NCBI GenBank assembly: GCA_018302335.1
Contig: JAGVZT010000001.1
Span: forward strand, 3,193 to 67,192
Direction of reading: 5' to 3'
DNA: 64,000 nt
Source: Candidatus Woesearchaeota archaeon
Lineage (GTDB): Archaea; Nanobdellota; Nanobdellia; Woesearchaeales; JAGVZT01
Shown here: positions 28,417-60,478 of the stretch, piece after piece
Layout: the number at the start of each line of letters is the position of its first letter
Position numbering within the stretch: position 1 is the first letter of the stretch
The notes under the pieces: generated by a model
The model's input: the letters and a program-made list of their open reading frames with translations, nothing else
Database searches by the model: none
What the model was told of the DNA's origin: nothing
Made by a program: the position numbers and the translations under genes

Positions 28417-28576
28417 GCGCTCGCGCCGCAAAAAGGGAGTATCTTTCGGTCGCCATGCTGGGCAATATCCAGGTTGTCTCGTAGGAATACCGGATATCCT
28501 CAGCAACGCGGCCGATCTCCCCCTCTAAAAGACAGTCGGCACAAGATATTTATGCTCGCTCATGCCGAAAGGCGCG

Positions 28577-46500: not shown

Positions 46501-48666
46501 ATGAGGCGCGCGGGCATCCTCCTTGCATTCCTGCTCCTCGCGGGAAGCGCGGCCGCCGACTGCCGCGTGCTGAACGCCGACATCTTCCTCGCCGGAGACG
46601 TGGCGGACTGCTACATCGTCAATGCCCCGCTGCGCATCGATGGCCGCAACCACACCCTCATCGGCAGGGGGGGCATCGGCATCGACAACCGGGCGGGCCA
46701 CGGCCTGACTGTCGAGAACCTGCGGCTCACCAACGTCACGGTGGGGCTCTGGGCCAGGGGGATGCGCTTCTCCCTCCTGGATTCCATCCTGGTGGAGACG
46801 CTCGACGCGCCGAACAGCTACGGCGTCGTGCTCGAACAGAGCGAGGAGAACCTCCTCCAGCACAGCTCCATCGTGACGCGCGGGGCGTGGGGGCACGGCA
46901 TCGCCGTCTCCGGGGGGAGAAACAACCGCGTCCTCAACACCTCGGTGCGCACCCTGGGCCAGAGTGCGCATGGCGTGTTCATTCTGAGCTCGCGCGGGAA
47001 CCGCTTTGACGACCTCTCGATTGCTGCGCACGGCGACTCCATCGTGCTCGACCGCTCAAGCGGCAATCTCTTCGCCGGTGGAAGCGCAAGCGGCCAGGAG
47101 GCGCTCCTCGTCCTGCCGGGCTCCGCAGGAAACCGGCTGGAGGATGTCTCCCTTGATGGCCTGTCTCTCTCGGTGCATGAGATTGCCTCTCGCGCGCTCT
47201 ACCGCGATGTCACGGCGGTGCTGAAGCCAGGTCTCGTCGAGCTCACCACCGCGCTCGGGGTGCGGGAGCTCGGACAGGGCCTGGTGGACTTCTCTCTCGG
47301 CTATGAGGACACCCTCCGAGTCATGGAAGCAACCATCACCCTCTTTCAGTATGACCCCGCGCGTGGCGCGTGGTATGCCCTCTCCAATGAGCTGGACAGC
47401 GTGGGCAACACGGTCCGCTCGGGCAATCTCAGCTCTCCCGGGCTCTTTGTCCTGCTCGGTGAGGCCCCGCAGCCGGACCTCAGCGGGGTCTACCTTCCGG
47501 TCCGGGTCATCGGCGGACTGGACGTCGAGGTGTTCCTGAGCGGCCGCCGCGCTCCTGTCTTCCTCCGCCGGATGGAGAATGCATCCATCGTCATGACCAT
47601 CACCGAGGAGCAGAGGGAGCGGCTCGCGAACCGCAGCGGAGCGGCGTCTGACGGCTATGCCGTCCCGGGCTCGAGCGTGGAAATCATCAGGGAGCAGGGT
47701 GATGCTCCCGCAGAAAGCGAGGCCAGCGGGATGGAGAGCTATTTCGTTCCGACCGCCGGGAGGGACAACCAGACCGCCGCCAATCTCACCGGCAGTACGG
47801 AGCGTGCGGGCGCTTTCCCCTGGGTCGCGCTCCTGGCAATCGGAGCGGTCGTCACGGGCCTGCTCTACGCCGTGCTCCGGCGGAGCCGCGTGCGCGCGTC
47901 CTGGGATGACGCAGGTTCTGCGGACGCCGCGACGCTGGAAGGCGCTTCGACCGCGGAGAGCGCGCTGGAGCTCATGGCGGTCGAGGGGTCGCGCGACATA
48001 CTCGTCATGCAGGAAGGCCGTGCGCTTGGCATCCTCATGCGGCGCACCGTCGTCCGCGAGGTGGCTGCCGGACGGGACCCTCGGAGCATCCATGTCCGGG
48101 AGCTCGTCAGGCCGGTCCAGTCCGTGTCACCCGGTGCCTCCATGCGGGCTGTCCTGCGCATCGCCGTCCGGCAGGCTGCAACTCCCGTCCGGCGCGGGAG
48201 TGCAATCACCGGAGTACTGAGCAGGAGCGAGTTTCTCCGGCAGGTGGTGGAGATGCTGTCGCGCAGGCAGTTCCGACCCGGCGAGATTCCCTCAGCCAGC
48301 CAGGCGAGGGTCTACAACTACCTGACAGCCGACGGAAGCCAGCCGATGGGCACCCTTGTGGAGAAGATGGTGCAGGAGACGGCGGACTGCATCCTGGTGA
48401 TGGACGATGCGCATGTCACGGGCATCATCACGGACCGTGATATCCTCAAGGAGTACCTGCGAAGCCCCTCGGGGCTCCGGTCCGCCCTTGCGGAGCACAT
48501 CATGTGCAAGGGCGTGCTCACTGTCCAGAGCGCCGACACCGCGCTCCAGGCCGCCAGGGAACTGGTCGCGAGCGGAGTGCGCCGCGCCCCTGTCCTCTAC
48601 AAGGGGAAAGTGGTGGGAATCGTCACCGAGCGTTCCCTGTTGGTGGCACTCGATAGGCTGCTGTGA
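46501..48666 (+). CDS. membrane protein with extracellular right-handed beta-helix (pectate-lyase/NosD-like) domain and two cytoplasmic CBS pairs
   Basis: Signal MRRAGILLAFLLLAGSAAA; repeated NxxG/beta-helix rungs (GIGIDNRAGHGLTVENLRLTNVTVGL, GIAVSGGRNNRVLNTSV...); TM helix AFPWVALLAIGAVVTGLLYAVL; then four CBS motifs. TATA gggtttatatatg centred about 26 bp upstream (leaderless). Confidence 0.75.
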   Translation: MRRAGILLAFLLLAGSAAADCRVLNADIFLAGDVADCYIVNAPLRIDGRNHTLIGRGGIGIDNRAGHGLTVENLRLTNVTVGLWARGMRFSLLDSILVETLDAPNSYGVVLEQSEENLLQHSSIVTRGAWGHGIAVSGGRNNRVLNTSVRTLGQSAHGVFILSSRGNRFDDLSIAAHGDSIVLDRSSGNLFAGGSASGQEALLVLPGSAGNRLEDVSLDGLSLSVHEIASRALYRDVTAVLKPGLVELTTALGVRELGQGLVDFSLGYEDTLRVMEATITLFQYDPARGAWYALSNELDSVGNTVRSGNLSSPGLFVLLGEAPQPDLSGVYLPVRVIGGLDVEVFLSGRRAPVFLRRMENASIVMTITEEQRERLANRSGAASDGYAVPGSSVEIIREQGDAPAESEASGMESYFVPTAGRDNQTAANLTGSTERAGAFPWVALLAIGAVVTGLLYAVLRRSRVRASWDDAGSADAATLEGASTAESALELMAVEGSRDILVMQEGRALGILMRRTVVREVAAGRDPRSIHVRELVRPVQSVSPGASMRAVLRIAVRQAATPVRRGSAITGVLSRSEFLRQVVEMLSRRQFRPGEIPSASQARVYNYLTADGSQPMGTLVEKMVQETADCILVMDDAHVTGIITDRDILKEYLRSPSGLRSALAEHIMCKGVLTVQSADTALQAARELVASGVRRAPVLYKGKVVGIVTERSLLVALDRLL

Positions 48667-48798: not shown

Positions 48799-48873
48799 GC
48801 CCTGGTGGTGTAGTCCGGTCAATCATTCCGCCCTCTCGAGGCGGAGACCCGGGTTCAAATCCCGGCCGGGGCA
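48799..48873 (+). tRNA. tRNA-Glu (anticodon CUC)
   Basis: GCCCTGG TG GTGTAGTCCGGTCAATCAT TCCGCC CTCTCGA GGCGGA GACCC GGGTTCAAATCCCGG CCGGGGC A closely matches archaeal tRNA-Glu (GUGUAGUCCGG.CAAUCAU; T-arm GGGUUCAAAUCCC). Anticodon loop is CU-CUC-GA. No CCA encoded. Confidence 0.9.
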
Positions 48874-48879
48874 TACCTA

Positions 48880-48887
48880 GTTTTTCT
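48880..48887 (+). terminator. oligo-T archaeal terminator after tRNA-Glu
   Basis: tttttctt seven nucleotides after the tRNA 3-prime end. Confidence 0.55.
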
Positions 48888-49028
48888 TACAAAGAAGGGC
48901 ATAACTCCGCAGCGCCACAACGCAAGAGATTGCTAACAGAACATCCTAACCAGGGTTATAGGTTCTGCTGCTGGATGATGAGTTACTTTAAATAACTTTA
49001 AATACTTTAAGTCATTATTGGTTAAAGT

Positions 49029-50405
49029 ATGGAACAGAGCCTTTTCAAGGAGCTTGCCGCACTGGATGAGGGCGCCTCGCTTGAATTCAAGCGGTCCCTT
49101 TCTGATTCCGACAAGATATGCCAGACAATCTGCGCCTTTGCCAACACCACGGGCGGCCTCGTCGTCTTCGGCATACAGAAGCAGGGAAGAAAGCCTATCT
49201 TCGCCGGGATAGGAGATACGGACGCAGCGCAGAGGGAACTCCAGAACTGGATTCACAACAATCTCAGGCCGCAGCTCCGCTACAGCCTTGACACCGCCCG
49301 CTTGGAAGGCAGGCAGTTCGTGCTGCTCACCATCGAGCCGCTTCCCCTCTCCGAGATATGCTCGTTCAAGCATGGCGTCTGGCGGAGGTCGGGCTCTGCG
49401 AATATCGAGCTTTCAGGGGAGCATCTCGTCACCTTCCTGCGCGAGAGGGGCATGCTGTCCTTTGAGGAGCTGCACTCCCCTGCCCGCCTGGGGGACATGG
49501 ATACCGGGAAGATTAGGAATCTCCTCCGTGCGAGGCGCGTCGTGCCGGAAGAGCATGAGCCAATCAACTACCGGACAGTCCTTGAGAGCATGGGTGTTGC
49601 GGTCACCCTTGACAGGTTCATCCTCAAGAAGTCCGCACCCCTCTTCTTCGCGAAGGATGTATCGAAATTCCAGCCCAACTGCGAAGTCAGGATTGTAAGG
49701 TTCCGGGGCGGCGAGCATACCCTCGAGGCGAAGGATGAGGACAAACGGCATGTGGACACGATACCGGAACTCCTGCGGACGGCATTCGATGCTATCATCC
49801 GGATGGTCGGTGCAGTTTCTGCCATCAAGCACGGCCAGAGGGCCGACATCCCCGCCCTCCCCGCTGAGGTGGTCAGAGAGGCGCTGACCAATGCGGTCGG
49901 CCATCGCGATTATATCGACCCCAATGGGATTCTCGTGGAGGTATATGACGACAGGCTGCAGATTACGAATCCTGGCAGCCTGCTCTCCGGCCAGACCATC
50001 AAGAACTTTGCTGACACAAGGCGCCACCGCAACCCTACTGTGCACAGGCTGCTGAATGATGCTGGCTGGGGGGAAGGCCTGTACTTCGGCATCAAGCTGA
50101 TGTACCGCAAGATGCGGGAGGGTGGCTTTCCCGACCCCGAGTTCCAGGACCTGGGCGGCTATTTCAGGGTTGTCCTTCACACTGCACGGTCGCACAGGAA
50201 GCGGAAACCGATGGATGTGGTGAACGAGCGCCAGGCGAAGGCGATAGCCTACCTGGAGAGGCACAAGTCAATCCGCACCAGCGAGTATGCACGCATCGTA
50301 GAAGTCTCCACCGTCACAGCAGTGAAGGACCTCAACGAGCTCGTCCGGCAGGGAAGGCTGAAGAAAGTTGGGACATACCGCGGCGCCCACTACACGAAGT
50401 CGTAG
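49029..50405 (+). CDS. AlbA_2 (Schlafen-like DNA-binding) plus HATPase_c_4 (RecG-C-terminal-like) domain protein with C-terminal wHTH
   Basis: N-terminal EGASLEFKRSL...ICAFANTTGGLVVFGI (AlbA_2 signature), central REALTNAVGHRDY...ITNPG (HATPase_c_4) and a C-terminal HTH. Lower-GC flank with repeated ACTTTAAATA upstream; immediately downstream of tRNA-Glu. Confidence 0.75.
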   Translation: MEQSLFKELAALDEGASLEFKRSLSDSDKICQTICAFANTTGGLVVFGIQKQGRKPIFAGIGDTDAAQRELQNWIHNNLRPQLRYSLDTARLEGRQFVLLTIEPLPLSEICSFKHGVWRRSGSANIELSGEHLVTFLRERGMLSFEELHSPARLGDMDTGKIRNLLRARRVVPEEHEPINYRTVLESMGVAVTLDRFILKKSAPLFFAKDVSKFQPNCEVRIVRFRGGEHTLEAKDEDKRHVDTIPELLRTAFDAIIRMVGAVSAIKHGQRADIPALPAEVVREALTNAVGHRDYIDPNGILVEVYDDRLQITNPGSLLSGQTIKNFADTRRHRNPTVHRLLNDAGWGEGLYFGIKLMYRKMREGGFPDPEFQDLGGYFRVVLHTARSHRKRKPMDVVNERQAKAIAYLERHKSIRTSEYARIVEVSTVTAVKDLNELVRQGRLKKVGTYRGAHYTKS

Positions 50406-50564
50406 GTTGCTTTAAGGATTTTAAGCCTTAAAGTTCTTGGAGTAAGTTAAAGTGCTGTGAGCCATCGGCTGAAACGACATACACTCCTGGGAAAGTGAAT
50501 CCCTAACCTAACTTCGTAAACAGAACATCCTAAACTTATGTTAGTAATCCCGGCCGGGGCATAC

Positions 50565-50981
50565 TCACAGGTCCTTCAGATATGCCTCCGTGAGGGTGCG
50601 GATGAGTTTCTGGATTCCTTCAGCGTGCTCCGCCACTTCCGCTACGGAAATGTTCTGACCATAGTAGTTGATCCGGTTCCTGATGCGTCTGAAGCGGTCA
50701 TACTTTTCTGCTGCCAGCGACTCGCCCTTCTCCTTGAGATAGAAGGTGAACGCCTCATGGGAATAGACCTTGTAGCCATCCAGCACGGCCATTGCCTCTA
50801 CGATGGCTCTCAAGGTGTCGTAGTAATTGCTCATCATCTTGCGCGCGGCCTTTTCGTCCAGGGGGACGGTATCGAGGAACGCCAGGTCCTCGTGTGCGGT
50901 GGTCAGAAGCGATCTTGCGAGCTGGACGTCGCGGGATGATTTCCTGACAGAGCCGCTCTTCAGGAAATCCGAGAACGTCAC
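50565..50981 (-). CDS. HEPN-domain protein (putative toxin of a HEPN/MNT pair)
   Basis: 138-aa all-helical protein with the C-terminal R..RN..NYYG region typical of the HEPN superfamily. ATGA overlap with the upstream MNT gene, the canonical MNT-HEPN arrangement. Confidence 0.55.
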   Translation of the reverse strand: MTFSDFLKSGSVRKSSRDVQLARSLLTTAHEDLAFLDTVPLDEKAARKMMSNYYDTLRAIVEAMAVLDGYKVYSHEAFTFYLKEKGESLAAEKYDRFRRIRNRINYYGQNISVAEVAEHAEGIQKLIRTLTEAYLKDL

Positions 50982-51520
50982 AAGAAGACCTCCCAGAAAC
51001 CATGGAGCACCACGCCATTCACGAAATTGTTCAGCAACTCCATATTCTGGTCCTTCAGTCTGTCAATCTCCTGCCTGGAATGCACGAACAACTGAATTTC
51101 CTGGCCTATCTTCTTCTCGAAGGCCGAAACATCAGCAGTCCTCTTCGCGGGAGTGATAATAAGCAGGTCGACATCGCTCTGCGGGGTGCTCTCGCCTTTC
51201 CTGCATGAACCGAAGAGCACGATGGCCTCAGGATTGTTGAATCGGTCAATCAGGTAATCAATGAGTCCGGAGGACCACAGCTGCTCAATGTGGAAGCAGA
51301 GTTTCCGGTGACGATAAAGGGGATTCTGGGCATTTGCCCTGAATACCTGTGCCTGGAGCCTTTTCTCACGGACCAGAAGTCCCTGCCTCTCCAGGCTGCG
51401 AAGGTACTTCGAGGCTGTCGTTGGAGAGATGCCCAGTCTCAGCGCAAGGTTACGTACATGGAACTCGGTCCCGGGATCGCGGAGGAAGGTTTCGAGCAGC
51501 CTGTTGTGGTTTCTGTCCAT
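50978..51520 (-). CDS. minimal nucleotidyltransferase (MNT) with N-terminal wHTH
   Basis: LFGSCRKGESTPQSDVDLLI is the GS-x9-DxD nucleotidyltransferase signature; the N-terminal HVRNLALRLGISPTTASKYLRSLERQGLL is a wHTH. Confidence 0.7.
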   Translation of the reverse strand: MDRNHNRLLETFLRDPGTEFHVRNLALRLGISPTTASKYLRSLERQGLLVREKRLQAQVFRANAQNPLYRHRKLCFHIEQLWSSGLIDYLIDRFNNPEAIVLFGSCRKGESTPQSDVDLLIITPAKRTADVSAFEKKIGQEIQLFVHSRQEIDRLKDQNMELLNNFVNGVVLHGFWEVFL

Positions 51521-51546
51521 TTTTTAGGGTAACTGTTCATCTTGTT

Positions 51547-51567
51547 GGACAGTTGTCCATATAAATG
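51547..51567 (-). promoter_or_regulatory. palindrome GGACA-GT-TGTCC abutting a TATA box upstream of the HTH-MNT gene
   Basis: ggacagttgtccatataaatg on the plus strand; on the coding strand it reads catttatatgGACAACTGTCC, about 30-45 bp upstream of ATG 51520. A likely autoregulatory operator. Confidence 0.4.
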
Positions 51568-51692
51568 TTTTGGTCTCTGAGGCGCCCATTGCTGGGGTCG
51601 GCGGTGAACTCGGATTCCGGTCGGGGCATGGTTCACCGCCGTGGACACCAGGCAGCGCAATAGTTAATAAGCACCGTCCCCGACTGAGCGGC

Positions 51693-51848
51693 ATGACCAA
51701 GAGAACACTGGCATCGTACGAGAAGCCGTTGCCGAGGCAGGTCAAGAGGAGCACGGAAGGGACATGCCCCTATTGCCACAAGCATGTCCAGGCCCTGGAG
51801 CTTCATATCCATGACAAGCACCTGCGGGAAAAGCGGGTCAGGCGCTGA
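51693..51848 (+). CDS. 51-aa C2H2-type zinc-finger mini-protein
   Basis: MTKRTLASYEKPLPRQVKRSTEGTCPYCHKHVQALELHIHDKHLREKRVRR has CxxC-x12-HxxxH. TATA gttaataagc centred 26 bp upstream of the ATG (leaderless). The track ORF is longer (from 51570). Confidence 0.45.
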   Translation: MTKRTLASYEKPLPRQVKRSTEGTCPYCHKHVQALELHIHDKHLREKRVRR

Positions 51849-51928
51849 ACGCGAGCTCATCCCGTGCCGGTCCCCGCTGTCGATGGAAACTCTCCTGGAA
51901 ACCCTTAAGAACCCGGCCGATTCCATGA

Positions 51929-52669
51929 GTGGCATCTTGGACAGGAATGCATGAGACCATCGTCGCGGTGGCGGACAGCGCGGTCCGCATCCTTTCCCCG
52001 TGGAAGCTGGACCTCTCACGCTACTACGAGACTGCGGAATCGTCCGAGCTGAGCATCATCTTGCAGGACGCGGACAGCTATTCCGCGGTGTTCGAGCCTC
52101 CATACCGGGAGCTGCGCTGCTCCACTCCAGGGAACCTGGAGCAACTGGCGCGGCAGCTGGCGCTCTATCTCGGCTGCTTCCACTCGGAGCGCTACCAGGC
52201 GGTGCACGGTTGCGGACTCGTCGCGGATGGAGCCGGGATCCTCTTCTCCGGCAATTCCGGCTCCGGGAAATCGCTCATGCGCGAGCTGCACCCCCGTGCG
52301 CAGGTCCTCGATGATGATATCCTGATGCTGGATACGCTCGGGGGGAGGATGCTGGTGACAGGAAAGCGCGGGACCGTGACCGATGAAGTGGAGACGGCCC
52401 GCATCCTGGTCGAGCCTCGAAGTCCGCTGCGCGAGGCAACGCTCGACCTTGTGGTGCTGCTGGACAGCGCGCTGCCGAGCGGACATCTGGAGCGGAGAGA
52501 GGCGATTCCCAGGAGCTATGCGAAGCTGGACGCCCTGCCGGACGTGCTGCAGTCGGCCTACTGCGCGCTGCCGGACATAGAGAGCACGGTTCCGGTGCAT
52601 CTACTGGGAACGAAAGGAAAGCGGAGGGAGCTGCTCGCTGAGGCAGTGCGCTCCCTCATGTCGCGTTGA
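51929..52669 (+). CDS. P-loop protein resembling the HPr-kinase/phosphorylase C-terminal domain
   Basis: GCGLVADGAGILFSGNSGSGKS resembles the HprK-C pattern [24 protein letters not shown]. No further assignment. Confidence 0.5.
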   Translation: MASWTGMHETIVAVADSAVRILSPWKLDLSRYYETAESSELSIILQDADSYSAVFEPPYRELRCSTPGNLEQLARQLALYLGCFHSERYQAVHGCGLVADGAGILFSGNSGSGKSLMRELHPRAQVLDDDILMLDTLGGRMLVTGKRGTVTDEVETARILVEPRSPLREATLDLVVLLDSALPSGHLERREAIPRSYAKLDALPDVLQSAYCALPDIESTVPVHLLGTKGKRRELLAEAVRSLMSR

Positions 52670-54581
52670 GTATCTCCTTCCGCAGGCGCTCAATCTCCTT
52701 CAGGAGCAGCTGTCTCGTCGGGCCCGCAGAGCCCTTGTACAGCTCGTTCGCGAGATGGTAGAGCTCCTTCACTCCGGGCTCGCGGGAGCGGACTCTCCGG
52801 GAGATTTCCTCCGAGATGGCCCGCGCCAGGCTCACCGCGTCCGCCGCTGCCGAGGCCGCCGCGCTGTTGTACCGCTCGAGTTGCTTCCTCACCGCGTCAG
52901 GTGCGCCTTCCACCGAGACAGCGCCGCCGACCTGCGAAAGGGTAATCCGCTTGGCCGGTTCCGGGCGCTTCTGCCGGGAGAGCTCCTCCTCCCTCTTCCG
53001 GAGCGCGGCTTTCAGCGAGGCTACCTCCTGCTCGTTCTTCGGCATGCTAGCCTGGGCGGAGCGCGCAGCTCGCTGCAGCTGCGCTTTCTTCTTCTCGAGG
53101 GATGGCAGCGCGGCGTTGAGGGCGACCAGCCGCTCCCGAAGACGGGCCTGCTGTGCCCGGAGAGCTGCGCTCTGCTGGGCAAGCCGTTCCTTCAGTACCT
53201 GCAGCTTCCGCACCTCGGCGTGTGCCGAGCGTAAGACGGTATCCTGTCGGGAGACCAGCGCGCCCTGGGCCTGGGCGCGCCGTGAGGCGTCCGCTTCCTT
53301 CTTCCGAAGCGCCGAGACTGATGAGCCTAGAGCCCTTTCCCGGCCGCGCAGGGATGCGATATGCGAGAGAGCGGAGTGTGCCTTGCGTTTCTCGGCCGAG
53401 GCCGCCGCGAGGGCGGCACGATGCCTGCGCTCCATCGCGGTCAGCCTGTGGCGGAGCGAGGTCAGGAGGGCTTTCCCCTTCGTGAAATCCCGAGAGGAGC
53501 GGAGAGCCGCATTGCGCTGAGATGCAAGCTCGCGCCGCAGTGCGTCCAGCTCGCTCTGTTTCTGCGCGGCCTTCTTCTCGACCGACGCTGCGTCCTTGCG
53601 CTCCATGCGGGCCGCGGAGGCGTTCTGCCGCATCTGTGCCCTGGTCTCCTTCAGCCGGGCTTCCATCTGGACAAGGCGCTCCTGGCGCTCGTTGAGCATG
53701 GTCCGCGCGTGCTTCAGGTCCTGGCCGGCGCTGACCAGCGCGGCATTCCGGCCGTCGACGGCACGCCTCGCCGCGGAGAGCTTGTTGGATAGCTCCTTCC
53801 GCTTGGCTTCGAGGGATGCAAGGCGCTGATGCTCGTCCGTCTCCTCCTTGCGTGCGGCGAGGAGCTGCTGTCTGGCCTCCTCGAGGGAAAGACGGAGCTT
53901 CTCTTTCTCCTTCCGGAGCCTGTCCGCGTCGGTGGCGAGCTGGGCGTGATGCCGCTCGGCATCCTTCAGGGACTCTTCCTGTGCGGCGATGTGCGCCCGC
54001 AAGGATGACTCCTCTTGCTTGAGTCGCTCATCCTTCTCCTCATGGCGCTGGCCGAGCACATGGAGCTTCTCGCGCGCTGAGCCGAGCTCCTTCTGCAGGG
54101 CGGCGAGCGCGGCCTTCTTTTCGGAGAGATCCTTCTCCGCTGAGTCCGTCTGCTTGGATGCGGAGAGGAACTCCTTCTCCCGAGCATCCGTGCGCTTCTG
54201 CAGCCCCTCGGATTTCCTCTTCAGGCCGGCAATCCGGCGCTCGAGGCGCTGCTCCTCATCGCGGGAAGCGGCCATCTGCTCCCCGAGTGCCGCAAGCTGT
54301 GCTTCCTCGCGGCGCTTCTCCTCCTGGAACGCCGACTTCTGCCCGGCAAGCGCCTTCTCCTTCCTGGCAAGCGCTTCGTCCAGCGCGGAGAGGCGCTGCT
54401 GCTTCTCGTCCTTCTCCCGCTCCAGGCGCCTGATATGCGCCTCCCGGGAGGAGAGCTCCTTCTGCAGGCCGTCAATCTCGCGCGTGACCGAGGACAGGTA
54501 CTCCTCCAGAACCCGGACGTCGCCCTCGATGAGAGAGTGCATCTCCTTGAAACTCTCGAGCGGGCCCGGCATGCCTCCCAC
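52656..54581 (-). CDS. 641-aa coiled-coil protein (SMC/myosin-tail-like heptad repeats)
   Basis: More than 500 aa of continuous E/K/R/A/L/Q-rich heptads (LQKELSSREAHIRRLEREKDEKQQRLSAL...). Short non-coiled N- and C-termini. GTG start. Confidence 0.7.
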   Translation of the reverse strand: MGGMPGPLESFKEMHSLIEGDVRVLEEYLSSVTREIDGLQKELSSREAHIRRLEREKDEKQQRLSALDEALARKEKALAGQKSAFQEEKRREEAQLAALGEQMAASRDEEQRLERRIAGLKRKSEGLQKRTDAREKEFLSASKQTDSAEKDLSEKKAALAALQKELGSAREKLHVLGQRHEEKDERLKQEESSLRAHIAAQEESLKDAERHHAQLATDADRLRKEKEKLRLSLEEARQQLLAARKEETDEHQRLASLEAKRKELSNKLSAARRAVDGRNAALVSAGQDLKHARTMLNERQERLVQMEARLKETRAQMRQNASAARMERKDAASVEKKAAQKQSELDALRRELASQRNAALRSSRDFTKGKALLTSLRHRLTAMERRHRAALAAASAEKRKAHSALSHIASLRGRERALGSSVSALRKKEADASRRAQAQGALVSRQDTVLRSAHAEVRKLQVLKERLAQQSAALRAQQARLRERLVALNAALPSLEKKKAQLQRAARSAQASMPKNEQEVASLKAALRKREEELSRQKRPEPAKRITLSQVGGAVSVEGAPDAVRKQLERYNSAAASAAADAVSLARAISEEISRRVRSREPGVKELYHLANELYKGSAGPTRQLLLKEIERLRKEILNAT

Positions 54582-54606
54582 TGGGAAGGCATGGTTTAAA
54601 TAGATT

Positions 54607-54668
54607 TCTCAGCAGCCGGCCGCGATACCGTGCGACGCCGGCATGCCGGACATTCTCCGCAAAGCGGC
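54607..54668 (-). repeat. hairpin-forming intergenic element, copy G (reverse orientation)
   Basis: rc of 54640-54668 is gcggccgctttgcggagaatgtccgg..., matching copy C. Lies between two co-directional genes of the minus-strand operon. Confidence 0.55.
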
Positions 54669-54671
54669 CGC

Positions 54672-56141
54672 TCAGCGCTTCTCGACTTGCAGCCCGGCGA
54701 GCTCCACGGCGCCGGGACGCGTTTCCGCGAGATAGAGATTGACCCAGGGATTCTGCTCGTCGGCGTAGCTCCAGCGCGATGACACCGCTCGGAGCCACTC
54801 CCCTACCATCTGGTCGCCGGCCTTCTCGATGAACGCGATGGCCTCCCCGGTGGACCGGTAGCGCACCACGTCAGGGTCCTGGTCCTGCATCCTGGACAGA
54901 AGGTCGAAGAGCACCGGGTCCTTGCGCACCGGATAGACCATGGAGAGCTTGACATCTCCTGAGCATGAGGAGAAGTGCCCGTATGCTGCAGCTTCATCCC
55001 TGGCGCCCTCGATGGCTGCGATTGCCTCCTCCAATTCCCGCACAGTCTCCGGAGCCCGGGCGCTGTCCACCCGCCTGAAGAGGTCGGAGACGCTCGCGGC
55101 GCTCTTGAGGTCCCCTGCCTCAGCCTGGCGCGCGGCTCGGCGGAGGGTCTGGAGCCGTTCCCTGCCGGCAGAGGCAGAGTAGAAGAGGAAGCCCTCCCGG
55201 ATGAGCGCGTCGAGAAGGTCATCGGTCTCTCTGCCGTTCACGACGGCATACTGTTCGGTGCGGCGGCTCTCGCCGTTCCCTGCGCCGTGCTGGAAGTAAA
55301 CCATGAGCGGCTTCGTCCCGGTGAGAGAATACAGGTCCATGCTGTCTCCGCGGAGTTTGTAGCTCGCAGATTGCATCTTCACCGGGAATACCCCGTCCGG
55401 CCGGATGAGCCTCAGGTTCCCCAGGCCCGGGCGGCTGCCCTCTGCGCCGTACTTGAGGGTGAAGGCGTCCAGCACGGCCTGCTGCGTCTCCGCGGAGAGG
55501 ATGGAGCGGTAGTCCTCTTTCGCGTCCTGCACCACGCGATGGAGCTTCGCGAACGCCTCGAGGGCGCGAGTCGGAGTCTCGAGGGTCACCGAGAGGGAGA
55601 GACCTCCCTCGCCGAGCATTGCCGACGCGATGAGCGCCGTGGGGGTCAGCGCGGGCCCCGTGACTCTTCCGTAGAGCGCCTCTCCGAGGGTCACCTGCTG
55701 GATGAGCGGGCCCGCCTTCGCATGCACCTCGCTGAGGAGCTGCTCCATGAAGGAGAACTCGTCGCTGATGATGTCGCATTCCCGCTGCTGCGGGGAGACG
55801 ATGATGAGCCAGTCGTCGAGATCATAGCCCAGGGCGCTGCCCCCCTTGTCGATGCGGAAGCTCTCGTCCGCGACCTCTCGGCCGAGGATGTCCTGGAGCG
55901 CGGCTCGGTATCTCTCGGCGTCGCGCCCGGTGAGGGTGAGCAGACGCTTGTCGGGTATGAGCAGCACGCTGTCTTCCACGTGCTCGCGGGAGTTGAGGTA
56001 GCGCTTGCGCAGGTGCTTACCCGCGATGTCCTGCAGGATATTCCTTCCTGCTGGAGGGACAGCGCCGGCAGGCTTGCTTGCCTCCTTCTTCGTGCGCAGG
56101 CTGCGCGCGTACTCTCCCAGGTCGCTAGGCTTCCGCGTCAT
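54672..56141 (-). CDS. hypothetical protein (489 aa)
   Basis: Clean ORF; 4-bp overlap with the upstream AAA ATPase gene. No domain recognised. Confidence 0.6.
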   Translation of the reverse strand: MTRKPSDLGEYARSLRTKKEASKPAGAVPPAGRNILQDIAGKHLRKRYLNSREHVEDSVLLIPDKRLLTLTGRDAERYRAALQDILGREVADESFRIDKGGSALGYDLDDWLIIVSPQQRECDIISDEFSFMEQLLSEVHAKAGPLIQQVTLGEALYGRVTGPALTPTALIASAMLGEGGLSLSVTLETPTRALEAFAKLHRVVQDAKEDYRSILSAETQQAVLDAFTLKYGAEGSRPGLGNLRLIRPDGVFPVKMQSASYKLRGDSMDLYSLTGTKPLMVYFQHGAGNGESRRTEQYAVVNGRETDDLLDALIREGFLFYSASAGRERLQTLRRAARQAEAGDLKSAASVSDLFRRVDSARAPETVRELEEAIAAIEGARDEAAAYGHFSSCSGDVKLSMVYPVRKDPVLFDLLSRMQDQDPDVVRYRSTGEAIAFIEKAGDQMVGEWLRAVSSRWSYADEQNPWVNLYLAETRPGAVELAGLQVEKR

Positions 56142-58003
56142 TGCTTCCTCTGCTTCTTGGCCTTCTCCAGCTCGGTCATGAGCTTGTCCAGCATCTCCAT
56201 GGGCATGGTCTCGAAGCTGTACTCTGCAGCCACGACGCTTGGGTCTCCCCGCGCCATGGCGGCGAGGCGGTACTGCTTCACGTGGCGCTGGAACTCCGCT
56301 TCGTCCGCCGCCACCACATCCTTGTCGCGCGTCTCATGGTAGCTGCGGATTCCACTCTCGATGGCGTCCGTATAGACCTGGGTGAGGAAGGTCGCGTACT
56401 TCGTCTGGAAAGCGGGGATGTCCGTGCGCCGGAGCTCGTCCAGCTCGCTCCTGGCCTCCGCGGGTATCTTGAGCCCCTTGGCAGCCTCCAGCTCGAGCCG
56501 GCGGCAGAGGTTCCGGACGTCCCTGCCGGAGAGGCTGTGCGCGTAATCGTCCGGGAAGTCCGGATGGAAGCACAGCGCCCCGAGGTCCGTCCACTTCTTC
56601 TCCGGGATCTCTGCGCTCTTCTTGCTCAGGCGGACGTAGCCATGCTTGATGCCTCGCTTGAGCTCCAGCTGGAGGAGCTTCCCGAAGTCCTCGGGTGTCT
56701 CCGGGCCGGTGACGAACATCTCGTTCTGCCTCAGGCGCGATGAGAGCGCGTCGTCCAGCGTGAGCGGCTTGTTGGTCGTCGCGATGAGGAGGTAGTTGCC
56801 CAGGGTGCTCGATGCGACTCCCTCGAGCTGGTTGAGCAGCTCCTGCATGAGCCCCCGTTCCGGGGAGTCCTCACGCATATCCTCGCGGGAGGCGAGCAGC
56901 GCGTCGATGTCCTCCACGACGATGAGGTAGACCTTGTCCCCGCTGTGCACCTTGGCGAATTCCTTCCGGATGAGGTCTTCCCCCTCTCCGAACCACTTGC
57001 TCTTGATGCGGGAGTCGATGAACAGCGTCTCGAAGGGAAGACTGCGCTCCTCGGACATCCGGCTCAGGTGGGAGACCATCCCCTGGATGGTCAGCGTCTT
57101 CCCCGTTCCCGGCCTCCCTTTCAGGAGGTAGGTGTTCGGCAGCCGCACGACGTCGAGCGCAGGATTCCCGCCCTTGTCGTACCATCCCAGGAAGTTGTCC
57201 GCGATGGAGATGAGCGACTCCTTGAGGTCGGTGTTCCCGATGATCTGGTCCCATTCCACGCGCTCCACCACGGTCGCCTGGGAGAATCCCGGGCGGAACT
57301 CGAAGCCGGTGATGACCACATCGCTGACTCCCCAGGGCTCGCCCTCGAGGACCCAGCTCGCGTTGCCAAGATTGTACCGCTGCACCACGTCGCTGAAGCG
57401 GTCCTTCTCCCAGCGCACCTGGTTGATGAGGAAGCTGTACGCGCCCTGGAGGACCTTGCGCAGGTTCTCGTCGTCGATGGTGCCAAGCTTGACGTGCTGG
57501 CGCGCGAGGCCCCTGAGCACGATGTGCGTCAGGTTGTCCATCAGCTCGTCCTTCTCCAGGCTGAAATCCACGTTGAGATAGTCGTTATCCCGGTCGAGGA
57601 GGTCCGCCTCGAGGCTCTGGAGGCCCGCGCACGCCCCGGAGAAGAGGGCGTAGGCGTTGATGAACGCGCGCTCCTGCTTGGCCGCTGCCGCGTCGCCTTC
57701 GGGCTTGATGAGCTGCTCGAGACCGTCGTGTACCGCGAGGTAGGTGCCGAGGGCGCGCTTGTAGCTGGTGAGCGCGGCTATCTGCTCGGGGCTGTTCATG
57801 CACTGGTCTGCGGTCCCTGGGTCGCCGACCTGCTCCAGGACGTACTGGTAGAGGGAGAACTTCCGGTTCTGTTGGATTCCCGGCGGGAGCTTGTCCGGAG
57901 TGAACTCCGCATACGGGAAGAACGCGTTGCCCTTCAGCCAGACGCGCACTGCCTTCTCGCACTGCTTCCAAGTCGCTGGCTTCACTCTACGTGCTGTGCT
58001 CAT
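56138..58003 (-). CDS. classic AAA-family ATPase (Cdc48/FtsH-like module) with 330-aa N-terminal domain
   Basis: Walker A LLKGRPGTGKTL; SKWFGEGEDLIRKEF (compare SKWVGESEKLVRxLF); Walker B YLIVVEDIDAL; SRH-like region ATTNKPLTLDDALSSRLRQNEMF. 4-bp overlaps with both neighbours. Confidence 0.85.
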   Translation of the reverse strand: MSTARRVKPATWKQCEKAVRVWLKGNAFFPYAEFTPDKLPPGIQQNRKFSLYQYVLEQVGDPGTADQCMNSPEQIAALTSYKRALGTYLAVHDGLEQLIKPEGDAAAAKQERAFINAYALFSGACAGLQSLEADLLDRDNDYLNVDFSLEKDELMDNLTHIVLRGLARQHVKLGTIDDENLRKVLQGAYSFLINQVRWEKDRFSDVVQRYNLGNASWVLEGEPWGVSDVVITGFEFRPGFSQATVVERVEWDQIIGNTDLKESLISIADNFLGWYDKGGNPALDVVRLPNTYLLKGRPGTGKTLTIQGMVSHLSRMSEERSLPFETLFIDSRIKSKWFGEGEDLIRKEFAKVHSGDKVYLIVVEDIDALLASREDMREDSPERGLMQELLNQLEGVASSTLGNYLLIATTNKPLTLDDALSSRLRQNEMFVTGPETPEDFGKLLQLELKRGIKHGYVRLSKKSAEIPEKKWTDLGALCFHPDFPDDYAHSLSGRDVRNLCRRLELEAAKGLKIPAEARSELDELRRTDIPAFQTKYATFLTQVYTDAIESGIRSYHETRDKDVVAADEAEFQRHVKQYRLAAMARGDPSVVAAEYSFETMPMEMLDKLMTELEKAKKQRKQ

Positions 58004-59151
58004 CGTGCCACCTCATGGTATATCTTGAGCGGGCTTCCCTTGGTGAGCTCCGCCAGGACCGCTCTCGCCTGCGCGTCGCAGACCGCAAGCTCGTCCGACG
58101 CGACGTCCTCCCTGCGGTAATCCTCGCGGAAGGAGTCCTTGCGGAGGCGGAGGGGCTTCCGTATCGTCCCCCTGCTCGAGAGGTAGTCCCGCCGGTAGCG
58201 GAGGAATGCGATGTCAGGATTCGCTTCGAGAAGCTCGCGCAGCGCGCGCCCTTCCCTTCCCCGCATGGTGCTGAGGTCGCGGACGTTTGCGCTGTAGAAA
58301 GGCCCGTACACCCCGATGGAGACGTGCTTCGGGTGCAGCGCCTCGATGCTGTCCAGGCCCTCCATGAGGTCGTAGGGAGTTCCCCAGAATTTCCGGGTGA
58401 GCATATCGGAGAGTTCCGCGGAGATGACCGCGCTCTTTCCTTCCATGCGGAGATCCTTCGCCGTCCCGCGCATCGGGATATCCTGGTCAAGGATGATGAT
58501 GCAGCTGTTGTATGCAGCCTGCGGCAGATTGTATGCGGTGAACACCAGCTTGAAGCGCTCGGTCGACATCCCGTCAGGGGTGAGATTACCCTTGCCCACG
58601 CGCATTGCGCGCAGGTCGGTGTGCAGGTCGCTCTTCGACGCAAGGGGGATGTCCAGCGTCTTTGTCCGGCGCGAGAAGTCGAGTTCCCGGACCGCAGCCG
58701 TAAGCTCCTCGAAGCGCCCCGCGTACGCATTCCCCGGGAGATTCTCGTCGAAGAGCAGGTCCTCCAGGGCAGCAGCAAGCGCGGCTTCCCGATGGGGCTC
58801 CGGAGCGTTGCGCACGTCCGACAGCCTGGTCAGGAGATAGTCGAAACGCGGCAGGCCGCTCTCGGTATCCACGCTTACCTCGCGCCAGACTCCTGTGTTC
58901 TCGTGGAAGTCCTCAGCTCCGCTGATGTACCGCAGCGCTCCCATCGCGGCCCGGACTCGGTTGAGTTCTTTTGCGAGGTCAGCCAGCACCCCGCGATGCA
59001 GCTTCCTGCTCTCTTCGGGGATGCCTGGGGCGGTGGGAAGTCCAGGGTCCGACGCGAGCTGCTCCGCAAGCTGCCCGGTCTGTCCGAGCAGCTTCGCGAG
59101 GTAGCGCTCTTTCTCCTCTCCCTTGAGGGAGACAAAGCCCGAGGGGCTCAT
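58000..59151 (-). CDS. hypothetical protein (383 aa)
   Basis: Start MSPSGFVSLKGEEKERYLAKLLGQ with GGGAGG 8 nt upstream. The 95 extra track codons upstream are R/S/P-rich junk overlapping the previous gene. Confidence 0.6.
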   Translation of the reverse strand: MSPSGFVSLKGEEKERYLAKLLGQTGQLAEQLASDPGLPTAPGIPEESRKLHRGVLADLAKELNRVRAAMGALRYISGAEDFHENTGVWREVSVDTESGLPRFDYLLTRLSDVRNAPEPHREAALAAALEDLLFDENLPGNAYAGRFEELTAAVRELDFSRRTKTLDIPLASKSDLHTDLRAMRVGKGNLTPDGMSTERFKLVFTAYNLPQAAYNSCIIILDQDIPMRGTAKDLRMEGKSAVISAELSDMLTRKFWGTPYDLMEGLDSIEALHPKHVSIGVYGPFYSANVRDLSTMRGREGRALRELLEANPDIAFLRYRRDYLSSRGTIRKPLRLRKDSFREDYRREDVASDELAVCDAQARAVLAELTKGSPLKIYHEVAR

Positions 59152-59155
59152 GTAT

Positions 59156-60478
59156 TCAGCCTCCCTGCGGCGCGGTCTCCTCCTTCTCCTGCCGCTCGAT
59201 ATCGGCGAGGATCTGGTCGATGCGCTTGGGCTTCTCCGCCTTCGTGGGGTCCGCCACGTAGGCAGGGTCCACATAGATTCCCTGCTGCGTGAGATGGTAC
59301 GCGTTGGAGAAACGCCGCTGCTCATCCTGGGTCTCGCGGGAGTAGGCCTTGACCTGCTCCATAACTTCTTCCTCGAAGAAGGGTTTCGCGAGCATCTCCA
59401 TCGCCTCGTGGGCGATTCCCCGCGCAGCAAGCACATTCATCATCATGACCTCGTTGGCCGCCTTCATGGTGCGGTTGTAGAGGTTGATGAGACGCGTCGC
59501 GTGCATCGCGCTCGCTGCGGTCTTGCCGTTCTGCTGGAAGATGGGCATCGAGTACTTGATTTGCGCCTCGTACCCTATCTGCATCATCTCATACGACGCG
59601 ACGAGACTCTGCACCGTCAGGAGAGTCGCCTCCTGTGCGCGACTGGAGTTCTCGGACTGGTCCAGCAGCTTGTCCGCGCGGTTGCGCTCATTCCGCAGGT
59701 TGTTCACCGTCAGCTCCTTCTGCTGGAGTTCGCCCTGCGCAGCGGTCACGCTGCGCCCGAACTCTTCCCTGGCGAGCTTCTCCGCATCGTTGAGCATCGG
59801 CATCTGCTCCCACTGGGAGACCAGTGTGTCATACTCTCCTTTCTTGGTTTCCATCTCGCGCTCGGCGCCGAGCACCACCTGGTCGAGCCTGGTGGATTCT
59901 CCTCGCCAGTGGTCTGACTCTTCATGGAGGTAGTCGAGATGGGAATGGCCATCTGCCTCGAGCGTCTGGAGCTGCTTGAGCGAGCCCTTGATACTGTTCC
60001 CTGCGCCGGTGAAGTTGCGTATAGTGTCCCCGATGATAGAGTCCAGGAGGCCGCCGCTCCGCTCCGCGCGGTCGAGCATCTTGTTCTTGCCGTAGGTCTT
60101 CAGGAACGGCACCCCGCTGAGGAAGCCCCGATGCATCGAGCGGTACAGGCCCCACATGACGCCCTTCGCGCGCATCCTGCCCAACGCGCCCTGCCAGTTG
60201 GAGGAGAGGTCCTTGTGCTGCTCAACGAGGTCGTCGAGCTCAAGGGCGTACTCGGCCATCATCCTTGCGAAGTTCTCGACAGTGATGCCGCTCTTCCCGA
60301 AAAGCGTGGTCTGCTCGCCGAGGGACTGCTGCTGGTCAGCTCTGCTCCGGCGGCCGCGCTCCAGCACGTCGCGCGGATTCTCCATGCTGCGCTCGCCCGA
60401 GAGCGTGTCGTAGAGGCTCATCCCCCCGCGGCGAACCTGCTTCAAATCTTCCATTGCGGTGTCCTGCTTCTTGGCCAT
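59156..60478 (-). CDS. hypothetical coiled-coil protein (440 aa), possibly TelA-like (toxic anion resistance family). This is a recollection-level guess.
   Basis: Largely helical with long Q/E/R-rich segments. First gene of the minus-strand operon; TATA TATTTAGT and SD GAGGTGAGG upstream. Confidence 0.55.
   Translation of the reverse strand: MAKKQDTAMEDLKQVRRGGMSLYDTLSGERSMENPRDVLERGRRSRADQQQSLGEQTTLFGKSGITVENFARMMAEYALELDDLVEQHKDLSSNWQGALGRMRAKGVMWGLYRSMHRGFLSGVPFLKTYGKNKMLDRAERSGGLLDSIIGDTIRNFTGAGNSIKGSLKQLQTLEADGHSHLDYLHEESDHWRGESTRLDQVVLGAEREMETKKGEYDTLVSQWEQMPMLNDAEKLAREEFGRSVTAAQGELQQKELTVNNLRNERNRADKLLDQSENSSRAQEATLLTVQSLVASYEMMQIGYEAQIKYSMPIFQQNGKTAASAMHATRLINLYNRTMKAANEVMMMNVLAARGIAHEAMEMLAKPFFEEEVMEQVKAYSRETQDEQRRFSNAYHLTQQGIYVDPAYVADPTKAEKPKRIDQILADIERQEKEETAPQGG

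Follow-up and report, generated by a model that had tools for sequence, protein, structure and literature searches.

The genes that follow a tRNA-Glu(CUC) gene in the window analyzed here, a 64,000-nt stretch of a Candidatus Woesearchaeota contig, raise the question of whether they were acquired at an integration hot-spot and, if so, whether as one island or in separate steps. A sequence-only reading had proposed a hot-spot or defence islet spanning 48874–52669. The tRNA gene and the oligo-T run behind it were recovered as that reading described (Table 1), as was the lower GC content that follows: GC falls from ~0.65 to 0.49–0.60 across 48.8–51.8 kb, GC3 is depressed in the AlbA_2 (0.76), HEPN (0.75), MNT (0.69), and zinc-finger (0.77) genes compared to their neighbours (0.80–0.90), and the 4-mer distance peaks at 49.5–52.0 kb (z ~3). 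The GC3 and 4-mer anomalies are confined to 48.9–51.6 kb and so leave the P-loop gene outside, short of the far end of the proposed islet.

Table 1. Features at the tRNA-Glu locus, in window positions.
Feature	Position	Strand	Basis or detail
tRNA-Glu(CUC), integration target	48799..48873	+	ARAGORN; Rfam tRNA, 58 bits
att copy 1 (attL), AATCCCGGCCGGGGCATAC, tRNA 3′ end plus 3 nt	48858..48876	+	Exact 19-nt direct repeat
Left spacer of unit	48877..48982	+	Terminator-like T5 run at 48881-48885; 15-nt repeat AACAGAACATCCTAA at 48935-48949, containing CCTAAC
Upstream motif array and promoter	48983..49028	+	CTTTAA at 48986, 48996, 49005; inverted TTAAAG at 49022
AlbA_2 (Schlafen-like), HATPase_c_4, and DeoR-type wHTH protein, 458 aa	49029..50405	+	Pfam, PHROG, and PDB profiles
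Downstream motif array	50406..50454	+	CTTTAA at 50410; TTAAAG at 50428, 50447
Right spacer	50455..50545	+	CCTAAC at 50502, 50507; second 15-nt repeat copy at 50519-50533
att copy 2 (attR), abutting the HEPN stop codon	50546..50564	+	Exact 19-nt repeat
Predicted HEPN-fold protein, 138 aa, non-canonical R101-x4-Y106	50565..50981	-	Remote evidence
wHTH-MNT nucleotidyltransferase, 180 aa, intact GS...DVD motif	50978..51520	-	Pfam, PADLOC
MNT promoter: TATA 51559-51566 (ATATAAAT on + strand), then palindrome GGACAGTTGTCC 51547-51558	51547..51566	-	Sequence reading
Candidate degenerate att copy 3	51613..51631	+	Loop of a perfect 10-bp inverted repeat (51600-51609 / 51631-51640)
Cys2-His-rich mini-protein, 51 aa, adjoining the islet	51693..51848	+	Gene calls; zf-Di19 only at E=0.003
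P-loop ORFan, 240 aa, GNSGSGKS...LDDD	51947..52669	+	GC3 0.80, normal 4-mer profile

The 3′ end of a tRNA gene is a classic integration target, and a direct repeat of this end, which the sequence-only reading suggested looking for downstream, is present as an exact 19-nt copy. Leaving aside repeats internal to one repetitive ORF, the pair is the sole long exact direct repeat of the window. None of the window's shuffles matched the 24-nt tRNA end a second time, and 0.09 matches to the 18-nt core (≤3 mismatches) are expected per window. Where the final 2 nt of attL differ (L003 and L010), a 17-nt repeat remains. The perfect repeats bound 48858–50564 and enclose a unit of 1688 bp, measured from repeat start to repeat start (48877–50564 including attR), with the AlbA_2 gene as its sole gene. 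Three contigs of the same population, each from a different metagenome sample (L012, ENA; L013 and L019, JGI), have GGGGCATAC followed directly by TCACAGG, joining the tRNA to the HEPN stop with one repeat copy, so that exactly the AlbA_2 unit is missing. The flanks of these empty sites are otherwise 99.7–100% identical to the window, the filled site was found in at least 18 contigs, and flanking haplotypes are common to both alleles; the AlbA_2 unit is still segregating in the population, by gain or loss. Insert-free variants are thus available within the population, and the flanking genes have no relatives beyond the window's own species. The repeat and the empty alleles support the idea of an integration hot-spot, but within the proposed span the perfect repeat delimits the AlbA_2 cassette alone.

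The explanation that we favour, with moderate confidence, is an att-bounded miniature integrative element without an integrase, stacked at a tRNA-Glu hot-spot of an uncultured DPANN archaeon and either moved in trans or decayed. The newest layer would be 48877–50564, and its entry would have been integrase-mediated, with a copy of the tRNA 3′ end borne by the element recombining with the tRNA gene to leave the 19-nt direct repeat; the circular junction of the unit would read CTTATGTTAGT-AATCCCGGCCGGGGCATAC-CTAGTTTTTC. Since the unit has no recombinase, it may have been moved by an integrase encoded elsewhere (on a helper virus, plasmid, or island) or may be what is left of a decayed element, still open to loss through recombination between its own repeats. 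No similarity to tyrosine integrases was detected within the window. Neither an integrase nor an excisionase nor a circular attP junction came to light, and scans of JGI and IMG/VR were negative too. Two IMG/VR matches to the att core, both inside coding sequence, were attributed to chance. Archaeal att sites typically exceed 19 nt of identity, and the short repeat is a point against this reading.

The pair of wHTH-MNT and HEPN genes, together with the palindromic operator, would form the next layer; it probably inserted earlier and is now fixed, with a distal att that has decayed. The MNT matches NTP_transf_2 (6e-10) and HTH_24 in Pfam and PDC-M05A in PADLOC (4e-20), with a match to the MntA equivalog (6e-7) that is below threshold (29 bits vs a cut-off of 60). 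Its gene overlaps the HEPN gene as proposed from sequence, though through GTGA (MNT TGA stop, HEPN GTG start) and not ATGA. The HEPN gene itself lacks a direct Pfam match, and the assignment of its product is supported remotely, by PADLOC PDC-M05B (1e-9), a profile match to a PDB HEPN protein (1.3e-3), matches to PF05168 in 7 of 54 relatives, and an AF2 model (pLDDT 98) with HEPN proteins as top Foldseek matches. The palindrome described as overlapping the MNT promoter follows immediately on the MNT TATA and is likely an operator. At the candidate third att copy, the window haplotype matches 14 of 19 positions, which is chance level, while the L004, L012, and L013 haplotypes match 15 of 19 with an exact 13-mer, CCGGCCGGGGCAT (0.475 sites as good expected by chance per 64 kb, both strands). 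This weaker copy suggests that HEPN/MNT was an earlier insertion; the pair lies outside the perfect-repeat unit, and its tie to the hot-spot consists of the degenerate third att and atypical composition. A role in defence is plausible from the PDC-M05A/B matches and the resemblance of the AlbA_2 domain to a pAgo-fused domain (PADLOC).

Beyond the pair, one of two anticipated zinc mini-proteins was found, and the second was not. Four of the five population SNPs in the 51-aa ORF are synonymous, marking it as a real gene, and TTAATAA centred at about -26 agrees with the TATA placed there earlier; by adjacency it is a putative, unproven member of the islet. The P-loop protein, for which no homologues outside this species were found, does carry a Walker A motif, but the HprK-C-like label given to it is weak, as matches to Pfam HprK-like (16.1 bits, cut-off 33.3) and TIGR00679 (E=0.004) are sub-threshold and lie around Walker A only; its structure model was unusable (pLDDT 33). 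This gene is probably host backbone, and nothing pointing to a foreign origin was found for the zinc-finger and P-loop genes. A single acquisition of the entire 48874–52669 span, as first proposed, would be in keeping with the lower GC from 48.8 to about 51.8 kb, the clustering of accessory-type genes (HEPN/MNT matching PDC-M05), and the joint travel of wHTH-MNT and AlbA_2 genes in a related unit (L083), but is unlikely given the perfect internal att copy at 50546–50564, empty alleles without the AlbA_2 unit only, the absence of a tRNA-end repeat near 52669, and the host-like GC3 and 4-mer content of the P-loop gene.

Within the AlbA_2 unit, the three domains read from the sequence were matched in Pfam (SLFN_AlbA_2, 5.5e-20; HATPase_c_4, 1.8e-18; HTH_DeoR, 1e-6), with a full-length match to PHROG 12156 (1.4e-59) and PDB profile matches to SLFN13/14 and 3LMM. 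The repeated sequence previously noted at 48981–49010 corresponds to ACTTTAAATA, present twice at 48985–49004 and followed by CTTTAAG; the upstream CTTTAA copies have a 10-nt phasing and overlap the TATA TTTAAATA at 48997–49004, and 7 of the 10 CTTTAA/TTAAAG hexamers in the window flank the AlbA_2 gene. The gene has its own TATA promoter within these phased repeats, and the motif recurs in inverted orientation by the start codon and again past the stop codon. The arrays are most likely operators for the wHTH of the encoded protein, which would then repress its own gene. The downstream spacers, AT-rich as reported (GC 0.33–0.43 over 50406–50545), and the left spacer hold the 15-nt repeats, placed in the same orientation just inside both unit ends, as are all three CCTAAC hexamers of the window; these repeats are candidate arm-type recombinase sites. 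The left spacer shares no homology with the regions that flank related cassettes.

The same design recurs in related DPANN contigs, where three further units have duplicated target sequence at their borders and no integrase: one of 1609 bp bounded by a decayed rnhB 3′ end (L085), one of 2362 bp with a 66-nt repeat of the rpe 3′ end (26-nt exact core) that also contains a wHTH-MNT gene (L083), and one of 1574 bp with a 27-nt repeat inside an ORF, where removing the unit restores one open reading frame (L014). Three single-gene units at different targets are of near-equal size (1574, 1609, and 1688 bp), which is awkward both for independent decay of larger elements and for one helper integrase of fixed specificity and counts against the favoured mini-element, as do the five of ten homologous loci that show no flanking repeat. 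Homology between cassettes (proteins 85, 63, and 61% identical) begins at 48983 and stops at 50454, exactly at the motif arrays. Such arrays flank the gene on both sides at each of the 10 homologous loci examined, and their motif, CTTTAA or ATTAAAT, is specific to the clade. To our knowledge, clade-specific arrays on both gene flanks have not been described.

These observations could be read as an autonomous single-gene mobile element, in which the AlbA_2/HATPase_c_4/wHTH protein, together with the inverted arrays, directs or catalyses insertion into gene 3′ ends. At least four repeat-bounded units without a recombinase at four different targets, three of them holding the AlbA_2 gene only at near-equal size, would fit, as would arrays at both gene ends that vary with protein clade, homology breakpoints at the outermost motif copies, and an N-terminal domain whose alignment to the Schlafen nuclease core takes in two catalytic glutamates. 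We nonetheless consider it improbable: non-homologous spacers of 20–200 nt separate arrays from repeats, the repeats, as long and diverged copies of gene 3′ ends, bear the mark of attP x attB recombination rather than transposition and are absent from half of the loci (5 of 10), the third Schlafen catalytic residue is Gln here, and the arrays overlap the TATA box as in plain autoregulation. The family is widespread and we know of no recombinase activity in it, which also counts against autonomy. Very doubtful, too, is a locus without mobility, its 19-nt repeat fortuitous or a replication-slippage duplicate and its empty alleles simple deletions between copies: the polymorphism may be gain or loss, deletion between short repeats is common, and neither an integrase (window) nor a circular form (JGI and IMG/VR scans) was found, but the repeat coincides exactly with the tRNA 3′ end and sits precisely where the single-gene unit, atypical in composition, begins and ends, an exact 19-mer is not expected by chance (shuffles; 0.09 per window), and other genomes show this architecture at rnhB, at rpe, and at an ORF.

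Among known systems, the AlbA_2 unit resembles bacterial CIMEs, defined by the retention of attL and attR with integration and transfer genes absent (PMC5704250), in its position at a tRNA 3′ end, and tandem accretion in possibly standing in tandem with an older insertion. It differs in its DPANN archaeal host, with no known conjugative parent, and in being a single-gene unit of only 1.7 kb, and the near-identical designs at several target genes argue against simple ICE/IME decay. Archaeal viruses and plasmids with integrases of the SSV and pNOB8 types enter the 3′ part of tRNA genes and leave the tRNA end directly repeated, as here, but the AlbA_2 unit has att sites without an integrase gene or split int(N)/int(C) fragments, a 19-nt identity that is shorter than typical, and no viral or plasmid backbone genes. 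The HEPN/MNT pair, a putative toxin-antitoxin-like module, shares with type VII HepT/MntA and the PADLOC candidate system PDC-M05 an MNT gene upstream of and overlapping the HEPN gene, an intact nucleotidyltransferase motif, and a supported HEPN fold; it differs in that its HEPN motif is R-x4-Y and not Rx4-6H and its MNT has an N-terminal wHTH. The 458-aa protein has the AlbA_2, HATPase_c_4, and HTH architecture of COG2865-type proteins, a prokaryotic family for which we know of no function, and its EGxxLEFK aligns with the active-site glutamates of SLFN13/14, though the third acidic residue of the eukaryotic Schlafen core is replaced by Gln. In being small, single-gene, and without its own recombinase, the AlbA_2 unit is also like integron cassettes, including those of archaeal integrons (PMC9668308), but neither an attC-like hairpin nor an array is present in the window, the cassette comes with a promoter of its own, and the tRNA end is duplicated on insertion, which integron recombination does not do. 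The likeness to integrons extends to a relative (L081), where two genes of the family belong to a cassette array delimited by repeats, with a tyrosine integrase at its end.

The AlbA_2 gene downstream of tRNA-Glu(CUC) is bounded by two copies of an exact 19-nt direct repeat, AATCCCGGCCGGGGCATAC, at 48858–48876 (the tRNA end plus 3 nt; attL) and 50546–50564 (attR), the second of which adjoins the stop codon of the HEPN gene. Setting aside repeats within one repetitive ORF, this is the sole long exact direct repeat in the window, and its copies lie 1688 bp apart with AlbA_2 as the only gene between them. The empty site was found on three contigs from three metagenome samples (L012 from ENA, L013 and L019 from JGI), which lack the AlbA_2 unit and hold a single att copy, reading GGGGCATAC followed directly by TCACAGG; that one copy links the tRNA to the stop codon of the HEPN gene, with flanks 99.7–100% identical to the window. 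Because a 19-nt repeat cannot collapse an assembly made at k=141, this is a genuine presence/absence polymorphism with its borders exactly at the repeat. The sequence-only reading had treated 48874–52669 as a likely integration hot-spot, to be checked by a downstream repeat of the tRNA 3′ end and by relatives without the insert; the repeat and population alleles without the insert were found, and the idea holds for a smaller unit than proposed, that of AlbA_2. Little is known of mobile elements in DPANN archaea, and the locus supplies a clean natural pair of alleles, before and after an insertion at a tRNA gene, for such a host.

The gene set of the region agrees with gene calls on 18 metagenome contigs encoding an identical AlbA_2 protein. 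NCBI labels this identical protein Candidatus Woesearchaeota, while its closest relatives are mostly Candidatus Micrarchaeota, and the host is therefore taken to be an uncultured DPANN archaeon found in sets of related metagenome samples. As a description of the locus the sequence-only reading was largely correct, including the order of tRNA-Glu(CUC) and oligo-T run. It had counted two zinc mini-proteins, of which one is present and a second was not found among ORFs ≥20 aa. The 51-aa Cys/His ORF is considered a real gene because 4/5 population SNPs are synonymous, in Cys, Tyr and His codons. The label of HprK-C-like P-loop protein is weak, with scores below the curated Pfam and NCBIfam cut-offs (16.1 bits against 33.3; 16.5 against 240), a PDB match to 1knx at E=0.67 and a likeness to HPr kinase confined to the GxSGxGKS...DD stretch; a single-sequence structure model was unusable (pLDDT 33), and the protein remains an ORFan with sub-threshold HprK-like similarity only.

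Features of the tRNA-Glu region in window coordinates
Feature	Position	Strand	Domains or basis
tRNA-Glu(CUC)	48799–48873	+	ARAGORN, Rfam
T5 run after tRNA-Glu	48881–48885		
AlbA_2 protein, 458 aa	49029–50405	+	SLFN_AlbA_2, HATPase_c_4, DeoR-type wHTH
HEPN-fold partner, 138 aa	50565–50981	-	no direct Pfam match
MNT protein, 180 aa	50978–51520	-	wHTH, NTP_transf_2
Cys/His mini-protein, 51 aa	51693–51848	+	
P-loop protein, 240 aa	51947–52669	+	

The window and one other contig with the unit (L006) have the same alleles at 51042–51785 as the empty contigs L012 and L013, and other filled contigs differ. Such haplotypes, common to filled and empty alleles, point to population recombination or to repeated gain and loss. 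Further variation was observed around the site. In two filled contigs (L003 and L010) the attL junction at 48875–48878 carries GGTC in place of ACCT, four adjacent substitutions that sit exactly at the element border and shorten the repeat to 17 nt. In the empty-site allele (L013:1300–1340) the tRNA has no oligo-T after it, since the HEPN stop codon follows at once, and the T5 run in the window comes from the inserted unit (48874–48900 compared to L013). On a JGI contig (L020:1657–2836) the AlbA_2 gene is broken at window position 49886 by a stretch of low GC that codes, on the other strand, for an IS4-like DDE transposase; either the contig is chimeric or the IS insertion is real, and the break is consistent with a dispensable AlbA_2 gene. 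Upstream of the tRNA, the NosD/CBS gene (46501–48666) has a strain-level indel in L019, where 93 nt are missing in-frame at 47852–47942, giving a protein of 690 aa (P0122) compared to 721 aa.

Just within both ends of the unit is a copy of a 15-nt direct repeat, AACAGAACATCCTAA, and the two spacers contain every CCTAAC hexamer (three) of the 64-kb window; in a circular form the 15-nt repeats would flank the core in the same orientation, as putative attP arm-type sites. Closer to the gene, CTTTAA occurs upstream at -43, -33 and -24, phased by 10 nt, and overlaps a TTTAAATA TATA box whose centre is near -28; an inverted TTAAAG is at -7 and more motif copies lie up to 49 nt past the stop codon. 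Of the 10 CTTTAA/TTAAAG hexamers in the window, 7 lie in the two patches bracketing the gene. With AlbA_2 as its only gene, the unit encodes no integrase, and tblastn with the tyrosine integrase of a Micrarchaeota homologue locus (L081) gave no match in the window. A circle or tandem form would carry the junction CTTATGTTAGT-AATCCCGGCCGGGGCATAC-CTAGTTTTTC; searched as right arm plus att core, it had no match in IMG/VR or in JGI metagenomes, a JGI set without even the integrated right end, and no helper or parent element was found in either collection. The att core alone matched two GC-rich phage contigs in IMG/VR, inside coding sequence, and these are chance matches.

Cassettes encoding 85%, 63% and 61% identical proteins are homologous to the window from 48983/48984 to 50452–50454, limits that are the exact outer edges of the motif arrays. 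The array layout was common to 10/10 homologous loci examined, with CTTTAA in the closest relatives (61–85% protein identity) and ATTAAAT in a 45–50% clade, which suggests that the protein and its putative sites co-evolve; these clade-specific arrays provide a concrete starting point for working out which DNA the family binds and what it does. Duplicated host sequence again bounds several units. At L014, a 27-nt repeat lies inside an ORF, which becomes a single open frame once the 1574-bp unit is taken out; L085 has a 1609-bp unit bounded by the rnhB 3′ end, copied in decayed form; and L083 has a 2362-bp unit bounded by a 66-nt copy of the rpe 3′ end (26-nt exact core), a unit that also holds a wHTH-MNT gene 27% identical to that of the window. 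None of the three units has an integrase. The Schlafen-like family thus travels as ~1.6–2.4-kb, mostly single-gene, integrase-less units at several different host genes. At L081, two AlbA_2-family genes and two toxin-antitoxin pairs form a repeat-delimited array that ends at the tyrosine integrase. No flanking repeat was found at 5/10 homologous loci, tRNA adjacency is not a rule (no tRNA beside the gene in L014–L018 and L081–L084), and the tRNAs at L085 and L087 had no downstream repeat. Viral relatives in IMG/VR were distant only (at most about 26% identity over near-full-length matches), with no close ones there. Scans of GTDB genomes, by protein pattern with the NosD/CBS gene and by exact tRNA-Glu, were both empty, and the NosD/CBS and P-loop proteins had no homologues outside the species.

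Where diverged duplicates of a gene 3′ end frame an insert, they are the hallmark of attP x attB recombination by an integrase. The best reading of the AlbA_2 unit is that it would be a miniature att-bounded integrative element, either moved in trans or a remnant, and it may be lost by recombination between its own repeats. It resembles site-specific integrative elements at tRNA genes in its border repeats and empty allele, and differs from them in having no integrase. The unit also fits the bacterial definition of a CIME, in which attL and attR are kept and the genes for integration and transfer are absent (PMC5704250), though the uniform ~1.6-kb units at L014 and L085 argue against an origin by simple ICE or IME decay. 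That near-constant size at different targets, for which neither independent decay nor one helper with fixed specificity is an easy explanation, is also why we assign a small probability to self-insertion, by which the AlbA_2/HATPase_c_4/wHTH genes of DPANN archaea with clade-specific inverted arrays would form an unrecognised class of autonomous single-gene mobile elements, guided by their own protein into the 3′ ends of tRNA genes and of protein-coding genes, with no canonical integrase or transposase; as the duplicated, diverged 3′ ends bear the integrase signature, we consider this very improbable. Both the trans-moved element and self-insertion lead to the question of whether the mover is a helper integrase of unseen viruses or plasmids or the AlbA_2 protein itself. 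A transposon with target-site duplication is unlikely, since no terminal inverted repeats were seen by eye at the unit ends. An integron gene cassette is rejected: such cassettes have an attC hairpin at the 3′ end, a promoterless ORF and an array next to intI. The unit has tRNA-derived direct repeats as borders and a gene with its own TATA promoter, and the window holds no array or integrase.

An integron-like arrangement was observed in L081:1800–10000 (GCA_043807785.1, Ca. Micrarchaeota), where 161-nt repeat units, each of paired 55-nt hairpin-like repeats (ACTCAGAAG...CTTCTGAGT), separate cassettes in the order AlbA_2 #1 plus ParE pair, PIN/MazE pair, AlbA_2 #2 and tyrosine integrase. At L087, a distant AlbA_2 homologue adjoins a DDE transposase, with tRNA-Leu 2.7 kb away, and three CCTAAC copies just past its downstream array (6425–6460) echo the spacers of the window.

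In the N-terminal domain of the AlbA_2 protein, the two catalytic glutamates of SLFN13/14 have E14 and E19 as their counterparts in the alignment, and the third acidic position, E in the family consensus, is Q50, compared to the Glu-Glu-Asp triad of Schlafen-type RNases (SLFN11/13/14 core). AlbA_2 Schlafen-like regulators are widespread and common in defence islands, and we know of no role for the family. The full-length protein matches a phage protein family and a pAgo-fused domain, which makes a role in defence or exclusion plausible.

Compositional anomalies extend to the right of attR. The drop in GC after the tRNA, noted from the sequence alone, was confirmed (~0.65 to 0.49–0.60 across 48.8–51.8 kb), 4-mer distance has its peak (z about 3) at 49.5–52.0 kb and normal values at 51.5 kb and beyond, and GC3 is 0.76 for AlbA_2, 0.75 for HEPN, 0.69 for MNT and 0.77 for the zinc finger, compared to 0.80–0.90 for neighbours and 0.80 for the P-loop gene. 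For the zinc-finger and P-loop genes there was no evidence of foreign origin. Between the zinc-finger gene and the promoter of MNT, a 10-bp inverted repeat has a third att-like site (51613–51631) in its loop. As it stands in the haplotype of the window, the site matches at 14/19 positions, which is chance level (six such sites besides the two exact copies, 4.35 expected), and is rejected as an att copy. L004, L012 and L013 have haplotypes in which C replaces T, raising the match to 15/19 with an exact 13-mer common with the tRNA end, expected by chance at ~0.5 sites per 64 kb on both strands and ~0.01–0.02 on this strand of the islet, on the strength of which it is kept as a candidate att copy. 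The arrangement is suggestive of two layers, with HEPN/MNT as an older, fixed insertion and the AlbA_2 unit entering later where the tRNA copy was intact, as is usual when elements accrete in tandem. The inverted repeat itself (GGCGGTGAAC / GTTCACCGCC, 21-nt loop; 51600–51640) is perfect and lies in the divergent intergenic region of MNT and zinc finger, which has an ordinary fold energy, no better than that of shuffled sequence (z = -0.55); Rfam finds no structured RNA in the islet except the tRNA.

The HEPN/MNT pair named in the sequence-only reading was upheld, with an overlap of GTGA in place of the ATGA reported there. The MNT, encoded upstream, has an N-terminal wHTH, an NTP_transf_2 match and an intact GS...DVD, the G[GS]x9-13 D-x-D nucleotidyltransferase motif being present as LFGSCRKGESTPQSDVDLL. 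Its 138-aa partner is a HEPN fold by four remote lines: adjacent matches to both models of PADLOC PDC-M05 (A, MNT, 3.8e-20; B, HEPN, 9.7e-10), a system whose defence activity is itself candidate; a family profile match to a PDB 'HEPN domain-containing protein' (E=1.3e-3); Pfam HEPN in 7/54 relatives; and an AF2 model (pLDDT 98) that Foldseek matches best to AF_0298 and to HEPN toxins from HEPN/MNT systems. Gene order, overlap, MNT motif and HEPN fold are those of type VII HepT/MntA, but the Rx4-6H RNase motif is absent from the partner, the family consensus being R101-N-x-I-N-Y106-Y-G with Tyr in place of His in at least 90% of the 54 relatives; because of this R-x4-Y the partner is not filed as a canonical type VII toxin. 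The palindrome noted at the MNT promoter, GGACAGTTGTCC, does lie between the TATA box and the gene start, a position that fits a predicted operator for the wHTH.

Elsewhere in the window, a minus-strand operon of five genes (52656–60478) encodes a 638-aa coiled-coil protein, a 489-aa protein, a 621-aa AAA ATPase and proteins of 383 and 440 aa, with an AAA domain as the only Pfam match and weak PADLOC matches to JetC and TRIP13/IetA only. By 4-mer composition, an 885-aa ORF (28562–31219) deviates most in the window (z = 4.2); it has no Pfam match and is internally repetitive, with exact repeats of 18–48 nt spaced about 340–510 nt apart and a 19-nt repeat with a spacing of about 1190 nt.
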